Assembly: GCA_007375645.1 (NCBI GenBank)
Contig: VMER01000001.1
Span: 273,211 to 337,210 of the forward strand
Direction: 5' to 3'
DNA length: 64,000 nucleotides
Origin: Parcubacteria group bacterium LiPW_15
Lineage (GTDB): Bacteria; Patescibacteriota; Minisyncoccia; UBA6257; 2-01-FULL-56-20
The notes beneath the pieces are model-generated. The model did not search any database. It saw nothing but the letters and a program-made list of their open reading frames with translations, and was not told the origin of the DNA. The translations under genes and the position numbers were made by a program. Positions 3,825-28,588 of the stretch are shown here, one piece after another. The stretch's first letter is position 1. Each line of letters opens with the position of its first letter.

Positions 3825-5441
3825 TTATTTGGTTATCCTATCCGGCGCGACATCGTAATAATGCAGAATAAACTGCCCCAGCTCTTTGAACGCCGGCACC
3901 ACCGTTGTTCCGGCGAGAAGTTCCTGCGGCAAATCATCTATTTTTATAAGCGCTACAAATTTTGGATCGACGGTCGGACCAAAACCGACATAAGTATCGA
4001 CAACTCTGTCGCTATAGCCTCCTTTTTTGAAATCCGGTATCTGCGCCGTACCTGTTTTTCCCGCAATGCTGAATCCGTCTATTTTCGCAACTCCGGCTTT
4101 GTCTACCGCGGAGACCATCATTTTAGTAACCGCTCTGGCGGTATCCGCGCTTATAACCTCGCGGATGAGCTGCGGTTCGGAATTCGCGTTCAGATACGGC
4201 CTCATCAATTTTCCCCCGTTTGCTATCGCGGAAACGGCATTTATAAGCTGTATCGGAGTCACGGAAACGCCCTGTCCGAATCCCGCGGTCGCGAAAGCGA
4301 TAGCCGGAGCTTTTGGAACCAAACGCGAAACATTTCCCTTGAGTTCTCCCGGAAGATCGATGTTTGCTTTTTCACCGAAACCAAATTTTTTAATATACGA
4401 TGTTAGAACCGACGAACCCATTGTTTTGACGGCAAACGCGGTACCGGTATTGAGCGACTGTTCAATAACATTGGTCATTGTAACCTTGCCGTGAGCCTTA
4501 AGATCCCAGTTGGATATTTTTTTTCCGCTGATAGTCACGCTCCCTGAATCGTAATAAGTCGTATCCGGGGTGATCTTCCCGGCATCTATTCCGGCAGCCA
4601 TCGTAAAAACTTTAAAGACCGAACCCGGCTCATAGACCGCTTCGGTTATCGGATTAGTGAAATTTTTAATACTGAAAGTGGAGTAAGTATTCGGATCGTA
4701 GTTCGGAAAACTGGCGGCAGCCAGGATCTTACCGGTATTCGGATCTTCGACTATCACACTGCCGCTCGGAGACCCCGTGTCCCGAATAAGTTTTTCCAAA
4801 GTCTGTTCCGCTTGCCGCTGGATGTTCGGATCTATGGTCAAAACCAGCCCTTCTCCGGAAGCAAGCTCGTTATTACTATCGGCTCCCGACAAAGAATTGT
4901 CGTAGAATTTTTCGAGTCCGTAACGGCCGACTTCTCCGTTCTTCTTGTCGTCCGGACCGACAAACCCGATCACCTGCGCCGCAGTGGTTCCGAAGGGATA
5001 AAACCTATCCGGAGATTGCTTCGCGTAAACCCCTTTAATATTGAGTTCCTGTATTTTGAAAACGGACTCATTGGGAGCTTTTTTAAATAATGATGAGTAT
5101 TGGCTCATTTTATCGGAAAGCTTTGCTTCCAGATCTTCCGCCGGAACGTTAAATGCCAGGGATAGCTGATGAGTCGTCTCCTGAATATCCTCGATTTCCT
5201 TCGGCACGGCATAGATCTCGTTAAAATCCTTATTTAAGGCCGCCGGAACCTTGCCCCCGTCTTTGTCCGCAAAATAAATTATCCCCCGGCGGGAGGCTTG
5301 TGAATTCGTAGCGCTGATCTGAGCTTCGGCCTGAGCAAGATACGAAGAGCCTTTGGTTATCTGCACCTCATAGAGGTGGAACAGCAAAAAGCCGTAACAC
5401 AAGGTTACGACCGCGATTAAAGATGCGAAGCGAGCGCCCAT
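3825..5441 (-). CDS. ftsI: Class B penicillin-binding protein / peptidoglycan transpeptidase (FtsI-like)
   Basis: N-terminal TM, SVFK (SxxK) and KTGTA (KTG) transpeptidase motifs; dcw context. Confidence 0.85.
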   Translation of the reverse strand: MGARFASLIAVVTLCYGFLLFHLYEVQITKGSSYLAQAEAQISATNSQASRRGIIYFADKDGGKVPAALNKDFNEIYAVPKEIEDIQETTHQLSLAFNVPAEDLEAKLSDKMSQYSSLFKKAPNESVFKIQELNIKGVYAKQSPDRFYPFGTTAAQVIGFVGPDDKKNGEVGRYGLEKFYDNSLSGADSNNELASGEGLVLTIDPNIQRQAEQTLEKLIRDTGSPSGSVIVEDPNTGKILAAASFPNYDPNTYSTFSIKNFTNPITEAVYEPGSVFKVFTMAAGIDAGKITPDTTYYDSGSVTISGKKISNWDLKAHGKVTMTNVIEQSLNTGTAFAVKTMGSSVLTSYIKKFGFGEKANIDLPGELKGNVSRLVPKAPAIAFATAGFGQGVSVTPIQLINAVSAIANGGKLMRPYLNANSEPQLIREVISADTARAVTKMMVSAVDKAGVAKIDGFSIAGKTGTAQIPDFKKGGYSDRVVDTYVGFGPTVDPKFVALIKIDDLPQELLAGTTVVPAFKELGQFILHYYDVAPDRITK

Positions 5442-5729: not shown

Positions 5730-6602
5730 TTATATAATTTTTATGGCTCGAAGTTTTGCGGAGCGGCTGCGTGGATTGATCTTTGTCTCTTCCCTTGAGG
5801 CAACTATCGGTTTTTTGTTTAAAAGTTCTGCGAACTTACCGCGGCTCAGCTCCCTGAACTTCTCCTTAACTATTCTGTCTTCAAGCGAGTGGAAAGAAAT
5901 TATCGCGACCCTTCCACCCGAGGCGACTATGTCTTTTAGGTCTCCCAGTATCTTTTCCAAATTCTCCAGTTCGTGATTCGCGTATATTCGAAGCGCCTGG
6001 AAAGTTCTGGTTGCGGGATCCATTCTGCGGCCCTCATAACCCCTCGGCAAACTCTTTCTCACTACTTCCGCAAGACGTCCGGCGGTTTCTATTTTCCCCG
6101 CCGACTTTATCGCTCTGGCGATTCGCCTCGAGTATCTTTCTTCGCCGAATTTGTAGATTATGTCCGCCAGCGCGTCTTCCCGTGTCCGCCTCAAAATTTC
6201 TTTGACCGGCACATCGTCTTTATCGAAAGTCATAAGGAGCGGCTCATCTCTCGCCTCCTCGGCGAAACTGAATCCCCTGCCGGAGACAAGTTGTTCCGAA
6301 GAGAACCCGAGATCCAAGAGAAGCGCGTCCGCTTTCCCCAGCTTTTGGACGGAAAGTATTTCTCTTAGGTCGGCGTAATTGCCATGCCTTAAGATCACAT
6401 TCTTCCCTCCAAGGCGTTTCTTGGTTTCGGAGAGTATTTGTTCGTCGAGATCCAAACCTAAGATTTTTCCTTTGGCTCCGACCAGAGGCAAAAGTGCCTC
6501 CGCGTGTCCTCCTCCGTCCACCGTCCCATCAACCACAAAGTCTCCGGGGACGACAGAAAGCGCATTTTTTACTTCTTCTAAAAGAACTGGAATGTGAGCC
6601 AT
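5730..6602 (-). CDS. rsmH: 16S rRNA (cytosine1402-N4)-methyltransferase RsmH (MraW)
   Basis: MAHIPVLLEEV...DGTVDGGGHAEALL N-terminus and SAM-binding region; follows mraZ. Confidence 0.9.
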   Translation of the reverse strand: MAHIPVLLEEVKNALSVVPGDFVVDGTVDGGGHAEALLPLVGAKGKILGLDLDEQILSETKKRLGGKNVILRHGNYADLREILSVQKLGKADALLLDLGFSSEQLVSGRGFSFAEEARDEPLLMTFDKDDVPVKEILRRTREDALADIIYKFGEERYSRRIARAIKSAGKIETAGRLAEVVRKSLPRGYEGRRMDPATRTFQALRIYANHELENLEKILGDLKDIVASGGRVAIISFHSLEDRIVKEKFRELSRGKFAELLNKKPIVASREETKINPRSRSAKLRAIKII

Positions 6603-7138: not shown

Positions 7139-7378
7139 TCCATCTTATTCTATTCCACTTCTGCCTACTGTCAAAATGTGCATATCTTTTGGTTTTCCAC
7201 CCAAGCACGCAAACTGGCCCTTAAAGGCACTGCCCGGTTCCCCACCCCGTAAAACTTTGCCGCGGGGCAAGGTGCAATTGCGAAATTTCGAGCTAAACAT
7301 TATAGTTTCTTGGTGAGAACGGACGATTAGCCCTGCCTGCCGGCAGACAAGTCAGTTGGTTAGAGCGCTGCATTTTCA

Positions 7379-7489
7379 CCCGCCCACCAATTAACGGACC
7401 CATAGCTCAGTGGTAGAGCGTTCCGTTCACATCGGAAAGGCCACAGGTCCGATCCCTGTTGGGTCCACATCGCAGAATTGGTGGGCGGG
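7379..7489. repeat. Perfect 14-bp inverted repeat (cccgcccaccaatt / aattggtgggcggg) bracketing tRNA-Val
   Basis: Seen directly at 7379-7392 and 7476-7489. Confidence 0.8.
7396..7467 (+). tRNA. tRNA-Val (anticodon CAC)
   Basis: GGACCCATAGCTCAGTGGTAGAGCGTTCCGTTCACATCGGAAAGGCCACAGGTCCGATCCCTGTTGGGTCCA; perfect 7-bp acceptor stem, anticodon loop TTCACAT, T-arm ACAGG/CCTGT. Confidence 0.85.
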
Positions 7490-7623
7490 CAAGTTGCAAG
7501 GGTCATACCTGCCTGCCGGTAGGCAGGGGTTCGATCCCTACAGGGTGCACAAACAGAAATTCAAAAGGTAGGGCGGGCAAGTCGGAAAGGTCACGGGTCC
7601 GACTTCCGATATTCGACAACATT

Positions 7624-8040
7624 ATGGAAATAAAAAATAAACTTATTGAACTTGATCTTAATTCTGAAAATACAGTTGTTATCGGTTCTGGTATTTTGAA
7701 CGCTTTAAATCTTCGAGAAAACAAAGATATTGATGTTGTCGTAACTGAAGAAAAATATAAGGAACTTTCTGACAACAGTCGTTTCAGAAAAGAGCAAAAT
7801 CATGGTCGAGAAATTTTGAATGATGACCTATTTGAAATTGGAACGAGTTGGACTGTTGTCGGGGAAAATTGGAAATTTGATGATTTGCTAAATCATTCGA
7901 TAACAATAGACGGCGTTCGCTACAATACAGTTGAATTTCTGTTAGACGCGAAACGCCGTTGGATTGCAGATGGAGAAGGCCGCCAGAAAGATATTGACGA
8001 TGTTAAGCTAATGGAACAATATCTTTCTGGTCTAAAATAG
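7624..8040 (+). CDS. Small nucleotidyltransferase-domain protein (Pol-beta/MNT superfamily) in an AT-rich foreign-looking gene
   Basis: From MEIKNK...; motif GSGILNALNLRENKDIDVVV fits hG[GS]x9-13DhD. The ORF-track N-terminal extension (7459-) runs through tRNA-Val and is rejected. GC is markedly lower than the flanks. Confidence 0.6.
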   Translation: MEIKNKLIELDLNSENTVVIGSGILNALNLRENKDIDVVVTEEKYKELSDNSRFRKEQNHGREILNDDLFEIGTSWTVVGENWKFDDLLNHSITIDGVRYNTVEFLLDAKRRWIADGEGRQKDIDDVKLMEQYLSGLK

Positions 8041-8092
8041 TTAACCGTCATTTTTTCAAAACAGAGAACGAATCCATCACATCACCAAAAAC

Positions 8093-8121
8093 AAAAATAC
8101 CGCTCCCGCGGTATTTTTTTC
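8093..8121. terminator. Bidirectional intrinsic terminator (ATACCGC tccc GCGGTAT + T6; A-run on the other side)
   Basis: aaaaATACCGCtcccGCGGTATtttttt seen in sequence. Confidence 0.6.
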
Positions 8122-28539: not shown

Positions 28540-28555
28540 CCTCGAAATACGAATA

Positions 28556-28588
28556 CAAAAATACCGCCCCTGCAGCGGTATTCTTATT
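28556..28588 (+). terminator. Intrinsic terminator ATACCGC ccctgca GCGGTAT + T-rich tail; same stem sequence as the 8093 terminator
   Basis: aaaATACCGCccctgcaGCGGTATtcttatt. Confidence 0.55.

Follow-up and report, generated by a model that had tools for sequence, protein, structure and literature searches.

A tRNA gene nested in the anticodon loop of a broken tRNA gene in a Parcubacteria group bacterium, and its probable origin as a replacement cassette

A tRNA gene inside a tRNA gene

The stretch of DNA analysed here (64,000 nucleotides (nt) from contig VMER01000001.1 of Parcubacteria group bacterium LiPW_15; hereafter the window) holds a working tRNA-Val(CAC) gene, which we call V, and around it the remains of at least three tRNA-Val genes. 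In the reading that we favour, and hold with moderate confidence, V came on a cassette of ~116 base pairs (bp) that was inserted into the anticodon loop of a resident tRNA gene, carries a replacement tRNA of the same type, and belongs to a recurrent family. An original prediction for this DNA had called the locus an integration hotspot, which was right in spirit and wrong in mechanism.

V was confirmed at 7396-7467 both by ARAGORN and by Rfam (RF00005; score 68 bits, gathering threshold 29). It is enclosed by a perfect inverted repeat of 14 bp, with CCCGCCCACCAATT at 7379-7392 and AATTGGTGGGCGGG at 7476-7489 spaced by 83 nt, and the predicted nesting of a tRNA-Val in such a repeat was thereby borne out by the tRNA searches and the repeat search alike. 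The flanks are halves of other tRNA genes, and the inverted repeat therefore lies where a second tRNA gene is broken, in its anticodon loop. The cassette reads TTTCA-CCCGCCCACCAATT … tRNA-Val(CAC) … AATTGGTGGGCGGG-CAAGT, the inverted repeat being its clamp helix, and the pieces of the locus are arranged as follows.

7321-7378, plus strand: 5' half of a dead outer tRNA-Val, 'X' (acceptor, D-arm, 5' anticodon stem, start of the loop), 100% identical to the intact tRNA-Val of relative L159 save for a 20-nt insertion and TT
7374-7392, plus strand: left end of the cassette, TTTCA and clamp arm CCCGCCCACCAATT
7396-7467, plus strand: working tRNA-Val(CAC) V, the cargo of the cassette (ARAGORN, Rfam)
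7476-7494, plus strand: right end of the cassette, clamp arm AATTGGTGGGCGGG and CAAGT
7495-7549, plus strand: 3' half of 'Y', a dead tRNA-Val distinct from X (3' anticodon stem, variable loop, T-arm, acceptor), read from the sequence
7567-7582, plus strand: second, orphan right end of a cassette (GGTAGGGCGGGCAAGT), from repeat comparison
7583-7616, plus strand: third tRNA-Val 3'-half remnant, its first part V-like (19/21 against V positions 39-59)

Read as a tRNA, the 5' half of X runs GGACGAT-TA-GC, a palindrome, TC-AGTTGGTTA-GAGC-G-CTGCA-T…, and is broken both by this 20-bp palindrome and by the extra TT. The 3' half of Y runs TGCAA-GGGTC-ATA, again the palindrome, then GG-TTCGATC-CCTAC-AGGGTGC-A, such that its T-stem is split. 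The acceptor strands of the two halves do not pair in the window. In two strains 97% identical to it (L002, L003), the palindrome copy in X is perfect and TTGCA pairs with TGCAA; between such strains, the outer halves diverge more than the flanking DNA. V is only ~74% identical to X and is thus not a recent duplicate of it; it equals the inner tRNA of locus L158 exactly and matches that of L132 at 70 of 72 positions.

By its MraZ homologues, the organism falls within or close to Candidatus Liptonbacteria. The cassette is an insertion, as comparison of relatives upstream of mraZ, ranked by MraZ identity, makes plain. L159 and L160 (MraZ 87% identical) have at the same place an intact tRNA-Val(CAC) X (GGACGATTAGCTCAGTTGGTTAGAGCGCTGCATTCACATTGCAG…; GGACGATTAGCTCAGTTGGTTAGAGCGCTGCATTCACATTGCAGAGGTCACTGGTTCGAACCCAGTATCGTCCA), with a response-regulator gene ~190 nt after it; cassette, perfect palindrome and the nucleotidyltransferase gene that follows V in the window are all absent there. 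A presence/absence check of related genomes, which the original prediction had proposed, has therefore yielded the site without the cassette and without that gene. Window positions 7318-7379 equal the intact X except for an exact insertion of the 20-nt palindrome after C11 and the extra TT, and the cassette then begins. In the syntenic L132 and L138 (MraZ 72%), X lies on both sides of the same cassette, and in L158 (87%) the same inner tRNA lies within the different outer tRNA Y, such that V is the same in the window and L158 while the outer 5' halves differ. L161 (81%) has an inner-type tRNA directly behind the promoter; L207 and L209 (76-77%) have no tRNA upstream of mraZ and are hence uninformative on the state of the site.

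L158 has the 3' half of Y as its outer 3' half, and L159 retains a decayed remnant of it, with a decayed palindrome, behind the intact X; the simplest account of the X/Y chimera would be recombination within the shared cassette. Two direct repeats starting GGGCGGGCAAGT lie at 7483-7505 and 7571-7593 (23 nt, 87% identical); they had been predicted with starts 1-2 nt away, at 7484 and 7573. Both represent right ends of cassettes, and behind each comes a 3' half of tRNA-Val, which makes the locus a layered one. The predicted likeness of the second repeat to the 3' half of tRNA-Val also stands, with 7582-7602 matching 7432-7452 (V positions 39-59) over 21 nt at 90% identity, and the tail of the remnant at 7583-7616 weakly resembles the end of X. 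The window as a whole holds one full cassette and one orphan right end. From the proposal of repeated integration and decay at this tRNA, the repeated arrival of DNA and the tRNA-derived pieces are retained and the integrase-type mechanism is not.

Several side observations concern V and its dead surroundings. The T-loop of V (7449-7455) contains TCCGA, with C in place of U55, which is near-universal in the tRNA T-loop; the same T-loop occurs in inner or outer tRNAs of L130, L133 and L146. Two contigs of the public assembly SRR8863432 (L001, L004) end inside V, at window positions 7413-7442, and overlap by 30 nt, and contigs of several relatives also stop at the tRNA-Val locus, that of L157 exactly at the start of the palindrome. 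These ends suggest either alternative flanks in the population or assembly breaks induced by the repeats. The dead outer halves of relatives hold further GC-rich hairpins (TCCGCCAGCTGGCGGA; CCCGCCCG…CGGGCGGG; CCCCGACGTAACGTCGGGG), up to three or more per half with the tRNA sequence between them largely readable (L132 at 6400-6440 and 6130-6200; L133; L148; L149 at 4550-4640).

Cassette ends recur at other loci

The ends of the cassette recur at other loci, around other tRNAs. One such locus, L019, came to light by its palindrome, independently of the cassette ends: here TTTCACCCGACC…tRNA-Met…GGCGGGCAAGT lies inside an outer tRNA whose acceptor strands pair (GTCAGGG/CCCTGAC), in a gene neighbourhood that differs from that of the window (gatA, gatC and a Mur-ligase-like gene). 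Scanning metagenomes with the pattern TTTCACCCGNCC-N80-110-GGNGGGCAAGT gave 32 matches, of which ~15 were nested tRNAs, amounting to 12 further distinct loci, and ~17 were chance matches in protein genes, roughly the hand-estimated expectation for a 21-base pattern. With the window and L158 included, this makes 14 distinct loci, in which the inner tRNA is tRNA-Met(CAT) (9), tRNA-Val(CAC) (3), tRNA-Glu(CTC) (1) or an atypical CAT-type (1). Where the host is known (the relatives of the window, L019 and L158), it belongs to the Patescibacteria.

The left-end sequence is common to 13/14 loci, the exception being L158, with CTCACA and CCCTCCC. The Met loci share the junction N32-TT-TCA-(clamp…tRNA…clamp)-CAAG-TAA; the Glu locus has TTC-TT-TCA-(…)-CAAG-T, and X has T-TTTCA-(…)-CAAG-T, its intact loop being TTCACAT. 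In L158 the left junction, CTCACA|, falls exactly at position 37/38, and excision there would give CTCACAT. When TTTCA was edited to TCA and the clamp, tRNA and CAAG were removed, ARAGORN called an outer tRNA-Met(CAT) in L130, L140, L141 and L146 and an outer tRNA-Glu(CTC) in L142, the restored outer anticodon equalling the inner one in all five called loci. At the other loci the outer gene stayed uncalled by ARAGORN after the edit, the outer halves there carrying extra hairpins; at most loci the acceptor strands of the outer tRNA pair with each other. Wherever the outer tRNA can be typed, its type is thus that of the inner one. Because two separate edits are needed, a single excision, as of an intron, cannot restore the gene, L158 excepted.

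Pairing of the clamp is maintained across these loci. Its first 7-8 pairs are nearly constant over the 14 loci (CCCGCCCA/TGGGCGGG), and the distal pairs vary yet remain complementary (ACCAATT/AATTGGT, AAATTT/AAATTT, ATTAAAT/ATTTAAT), with L158 showing a compensatory CCCTCCC/GGGAGGG. In the alignment of all 14 clamps, 86% of cells form a standard pair, compared with 40-58% when partners were slid by 1-3 columns as a control; 6 pairs are changed on both sides, in 19 such cells, and the covariation score was reached by 0/500 shuffles. The predicted RNA fold of 7321-7549 places the cloverleaf of V at the tip of the clamp (-107.7 kcal/mol, z = -5.8). Pairing is thus maintained, and the clamp may act either as a stem for RNA processing or, at the DNA level, as a hairpin. 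The inverted repeat is neither a bracket peculiar to this locus nor an insertion-sequence terminus, but the covarying clamp of a recurrent cassette. As in miniature inverted-repeat transposable elements and insertion sequences, terminal inverted repeats are present (14 bp, perfect, the first 8 nt kept across loci); a fixed-length target-site duplication is absent at the cassette, whose flanks TTTCA and CAAGT have only CA in common, and removing one CA copy fails to give the pre-insertion loop known from L159.

On these grounds we propose the following course of events. The resident tRNA-Val(CAC) X, between mraZ and the response-regulator gene, would have been split in its anticodon loop by ~116 bp in which a GC-rich clamp (TTTCA-CCCGCCCA… / …TGGGCGGG-CAAGT) surrounds the complete, different tRNA-Val(CAC) V, the loop's own TCA (TCACA in X) being swapped for TTTCA-clamp-tRNA-clamp-CAAG. 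V would then take over the function, and the halves of X would become junk. Since the outer tRNA reads the cargo's codon wherever it can be typed, an essential and probably single-copy tRNA gene would have been destroyed and replaced in one step. Repeated events and recombination between cassettes may have produced the present layers (the 5' half of X, the 3' half of Y and an extra cassette end with a third 3' half), and the dead halves would later have gathered the 20-bp palindrome. The nucleotidyltransferase-fold gene would be an accessory gene distinct from the cassette, situated behind the tRNA and probably transcribed from the tRNA promoter. The cassette itself may spread actively, either by transposition or by homing that follows nuclease cleavage of the loop DNA.

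We further suggest, tentatively, that the Patescibacteria may harbour a family of minimal selfish kill-and-replace cassettes of ~110-130 bp, each landing in the anticodon loop of an essential tRNA gene with a same-type tRNA in a conserved clamp, accumulating in onion-like layers and driven by a nuclease encoded at another genomic site, for which the small GIY-YIG proteins of sister cassettes may be candidates. Mobile DNA is well known to target tRNA genes, its known solutions being self-splicing introns or partial duplication of the tRNA by an integrase. The rescue proposed here is a complete spare gene, delivered into the very gene that is destroyed, in a package barely larger than a tRNA; kill-and-replace, if true, would add to splicing and 3'-end duplication a third means by which mobile DNA can persist in an essential RNA gene. 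A mobile cassette would explain swaps of tRNA genes between lineages with very small genomes, and would also explain frequent contig breaks at tRNA genes in such groups. Annotators should bear in mind that tRNA fragments next to a tRNA may record earlier stages of the locus, and the conserved ends TTTCA-CCCGCCCA and TGGGCGGG-CAAGT offer a handle for finding the enzyme.

Alternative explanations and known systems

Integrases could have placed larger elements at tRNA-Val repeatedly, with subsequent deletion leaving attachment (att)-like 3' fragments, palindromic scars and a cargo gene. The two tRNA 3' halves do begin just past the anticodon loop, a known crossover site of integrases that is reportedly among the sublocation classes of Williams 2002, and an accessory gene does follow the tRNA, is missing from a relative, and has homologues that often lie behind tRNA genes. 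We nevertheless regard this history as unlikely. The open reading frames (ORFs) around the block encode MraZ, the nucleotidyltransferase-fold protein, a response regulator and a histidine kinase, and no integrase or recombinase gene was found in or near it from ORFs and Pfam. Such integration should yield a hybrid tRNA and one displaced 3' piece, whereas a 5' half and a 3' half are seen around a complete tRNA; the repeats lack the tRNA 3' end, that of V spanning positions 39-59 only; the same 12+11-nt ends surround other tRNA types at unrelated loci; and the palindrome is widespread in its own right. With neither an integrase nor a duplicated tRNA 3' end, the site-specific integration originally envisaged is not supported in that form. 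Rather improbable, too, is a passive by-product of tRNA duplications and hairpin-mediated replication slippage, with the conserved ends inherited vertically from one event. Hairpins are abundant in such regions, and partial 5' tRNA copies do occur beside the intact gene in L005, L008, L034 and L087; inner and outer tRNA-Val are however too far apart, at ~74% identity, to be recent duplicates, the same ends accompany Met, Val and Glu tRNAs in different gene neighbourhoods, and the distribution among close relatives is patchy, with the 87% relative empty and the 72% relative filled.

A device acting at the RNA level, in which the outer tRNA is functional, V lies in its giant intron, and processing frees V and rejoins the halves, seems to us very improbable. 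Extra TT and AG block a 7-nt loop by single excision in the Met, Glu and window cases, and no 3-4-3 bulge-helix-bulge could be drawn by hand at Met-, Val- or Glu-type junctions. Palindromes interrupt the D- and T-stems of the outer halves, whose acceptor strands are unpaired in the window and which vary more than their flanks between 97%-identical strains. The host is moreover a bacterium, as its mraZ, rsmH, ftsL-like, penicillin-binding protein and murF genes attest, and we know of no splicing endonuclease in bacteria. What speaks for such a device is the insertion in the anticodon loop, in L158 exactly between 37 and 38 such that removal restores CTCACAT, together with a long covarying helix that abuts the junction as in split tRNAs and the stability of the fold (z = -5.8).

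Particular intron classes were also tried and rejected. The best drawing of a bulge-helix-bulge intron had a 3-bp helix (U.G, U-A, U-A) with a CA/C internal loop, and that for the window lacked a 3' bulge. Group I introns have a detectable ribozyme core and a length of ~200 nt or more; neither they nor another Rfam intron family gave a match up to E 10, the insert is 116 nt of which 72 nt are tRNA, and apart from the tRNA, Rfam gave at the locus only a spurious sub-threshold match in antisense.

Several points weigh against the insertion of a replacement cassette, as proposed above. No enzyme is linked to the cassette at the 14 loci, and a GIY-YIG ORF lies within 2.5 kb at just one of them, where it is not adjacent. 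A clean target-site duplication is lacking, and the extra TT and AG at the junctions are without explanation, as is the match in type between cargo and target unless homologous homing operates within one tRNA type. The metagenome search required the ends, such that their conservation is free of this bias only in the window, L019 and L158, and L158, one of these three cases, differs at the left end. Arm-to-arm correction among related palindromic DNAs could keep the covariation, rather than selection. Finally, the examined DNA comprises 64 kb, within which V cannot be shown to be the sole tRNA-Val(CAC) of the genome. As further negatives, no cassette was found in viral contigs, and a nucleotidyltransferase-fold gene neighbours the cassette only in the window among the 14 loci.

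Set beside known systems, the cassette shares with tRNA-integrating islands and prophages (att sites of tyrosine integrases) the tRNA gene as target, often at the anticodon loop; these too bring replacement tRNA sequence for host viability and leave tRNA fragments. Unlike them, it measures ~116 bp, carries a whole tRNA and no integrase, leaves both halves of the old gene around the new one, and ends in a covarying hairpin instead of att repeats. Homing-endonuclease cassettes and group I introns in tRNA anticodon loops, exemplified by the cyanobacterial tRNA-Leu/fMet introns and by free-standing GIY-YIG genes (for instance T4 segB, which lies within a tRNA cluster), likewise enter a highly conserved essential RNA gene while the host stays viable and are patchy among relatives, and a GIY-YIG gene does lie inside a nested tRNA-Glu of the window; the cassette differs from group I introns in having no ribozyme, in rescue by a spare gene and not by splicing, and in mostly lacking a nuclease gene. 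Archaeal intron-containing, split and permuted tRNAs resemble the locus in the break in the anticodon loop and the long GC-rich helix beside it, but the host here is bacterial, a bulge-helix-bulge is missing, the loop cannot be regained by a single excision, and the outer gene decays. A literature search of incomplete coverage found no description of the palindrome or of a bacterial tRNA nested in a tRNA.

The palindrome, the nested tRNA-Glu and the accessory gene

The 20-bp palindrome, CCTGCCTGCCGG(C/T)AGGCAGG (CCTGCCTGCCGGYAGGCAGG), is an independent, widespread element, separate from the cassette. It has three copies in the window, against 0.02 matches expected by chance, and none of these rows carries a strand assignment.

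2504-2523: exact copy, in a 5' fragment of tRNA-Glu, after nt 12
7332-7351: copy with 2 mismatches, in the D-stem of X, without target duplication
7508-7527: exact copy with T, in the T-stem of Y

The two exact copies lie where they had been predicted, and that given at 7331 was found at 7332 with its mismatches. All three are in dead tRNA pieces, precisely inserted and without duplication, and L159 has a decayed copy at the position of the one in Y. Exact copies of the 20-mer CCTGCCTGCCGGCAGGCAGG were found in more than 120 species-representative genomes, a minimum count among the matches listed (L005-L124), from groups that include Patescibacteria, Bacteroidota, Omnitrophota, Planctomycetota, Gammaproteobacteria, Bdellovibrionota and cultured isolates, and also in 35 viral contigs (L172-L206), with up to 6 copies in one. 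The palindrome is accordingly not the local integration scar it had been taken for, the identical 20-mer turning up in phage contigs and across many phyla. Contigs from elsewhere carry 1-6 copies each, in varied contexts, compared with 3 in the 64 kb of the window, all in tRNA debris. Outside the window, only ~8% of its genome sites (10/125) had tRNA-like flanks, versus 1.3% of control positions (8/595). Several of the tRNA-flanked sites are 5' partial tRNA copies just upstream of an intact gene (L005, L008, L034, L041, L087, L110, L122), and in L022 and L046 one palindrome copy is nested in another.

Other identities for the palindrome were considered and set aside. As the end of a GIY-YIG element it would be accompanied by such an ORF, which was found within 400 nt at 5/120 genome loci and within 600 nt in 1/35 viral contigs; as a transposon with target duplication it showed a 5-7-nt flanking direct repeat at just 5/121 sites, and as an occupant of hairpin tips a flanking inverted repeat of at least 4 nt at just 4/121. 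No common neighbouring gene was found over the genome and viral loci. In being a short, GC-rich and precisely inserted hairpin, the palindrome resembles repetitive extragenic palindromic (REP) sequences and bacterial interspersed mosaic elements (BIMEs), Rickettsia palindromic elements and the GC clusters of yeast mitochondria, and it shares with them the occasional self-nesting and the occurrence in the debris of RNA genes. It is unlike these in having an identical 20-mer over many phyla and phage contigs, in being only 20 bp long, in lacking target duplication at most sites, and in that no associated transposase was identified. Its presence in distant phyla and phages is a question separate from that of the cassette.

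The window contains a second nested tRNA, tRNA-Glu(CTC), at 2033-2535 on the minus strand, composed of the following pieces.

2535 to 2496, minus strand: nt 1-12 of tRNA-Glu, the palindrome and nt 13-18, a fragment of an older tRNA-Glu
2487 to 2236, minus strand: GIY-YIG ORF (PF01541, E 2.4e-15, 57 bits)
2250 to 2179, minus strand: working tRNA-Glu(CTC), with a terminator next
2078 to 2033, minus strand: 3' remnant, TAGTGG, AAGT, a hairpin and the last 14 nt of tRNA-Glu (TAGTGG…CCCCCTGGCGCTAC)

The stop codon of the GIY-YIG ORF falls within the working tRNA-Glu. L041, L110 and L122 have the same order of 5' fragment with palindrome, GIY-YIG ORF and intact tRNA, and in L158 a truncated GIY-YIG start directly follows the outer tRNA. 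The GIY-YIG gene inside the nested tRNA-Glu is the main reason to suspect a homing-type drive, and a nuclease like it may be the driver of the cassette.

Downstream of V, the block contains a gene of low GC content, as had been predicted for the DNA behind the tRNA scars (0.355 at 7601-8000, the lowest of the region, the surroundings being mostly ~0.45-0.55).

7278-7306, plus strand: promoter-like site (TTGCGA-17 nt-TATAGT), closely preceding the 5' end of the outer tRNA
7624-8040, plus strand: low-GC accessory gene, 138 aa, nucleotidyltransferase (Pol-beta-like) fold
8093-8118, no strand assigned: terminator-like hairpin closing the block, able to serve both strands

The 138-aa protein had been described as a minimal nucleotidyltransferase, and its motif and predicted fold agree with this, but the family searches do not: there was no match above cut-off in Pfam, NCBIfam, PADLOC or PDB sequences, and only a weak one in PHROGs (E 1.6e-4), to a family of unknown function. 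The motif comprises GSG at 21-23 and DID at 35-37, with S22, G23, D35 and D37 invariant in 25 homologues. Its AlphaFold model (predicted local distance difference test, pLDDT, 94.6) was matched by Foldseek to TM1012 (2ewr; E 2.3e-4, TM 0.62) and 5kqj (E 7e-4), the fold matches comprising TM1012, ANT(2'')-Ia and viral poly(A) polymerases. The protein thus resembles the minimal nucleotidyltransferases of the Pol-beta superfamily (TM1012, ANT(2'')-Ia and the MNT antitoxins) in GSG…DxD and predicted fold, and is unlike them in having neither a Pfam/NCBIfam match nor a HEPN partner and in being found only in Patescibacteria so far; no toxin-antitoxin partner, HEPN genes included, lies beside the gene.

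There are 287 homologues of this protein, those listed being 58-93% identical and none having a Pfam domain; all organism-named ones are from Patescibacteria. In 3 of 4 other contexts (L162, L169, L170) they lie just downstream of tRNA genes (Ala; Cys and Leu; Leu, respectively). The homologues in these contexts are 60-90% identical across different Patescibacteria classes, and sequence similarity of this degree suggests horizontal spread of the family. The gene is absent from L159 and from L132, the latter having a different ORF there. This ORF of L132 (4930-6080, minus strand) encodes ~380 aa at the position of the 138-aa gene and has a similar G…x…DLDISV motif, and no similarity between it and the 138-aa protein of the window was detected.

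The promoter-like site at 7278-7306 probably drives the whole nested unit; an TTATAGTTT motif also lies upstream of the tRNA in L157, L158, L159 and L161. This site and the single terminator at 8093-8118 suggest one transcript, which would extend from the start of the outer tRNA to the end of the 138-aa gene. That the gene has its own terminator, with a stem identical to one at 28561, was confirmed by search: across the window ATACCGC/GCGGTAT has exactly two occurrences (8097 and 28561), where chance would give 0. The corresponding hairpins, at 8090-8114 and 28551-28581, share ACAAAAATACCGC…GCGGTAT, a 13+7-nt match on which the earlier suggestion of a common mobile donor for the two flanking genes would depend, and are the sole two of this kind in the 64 kb.

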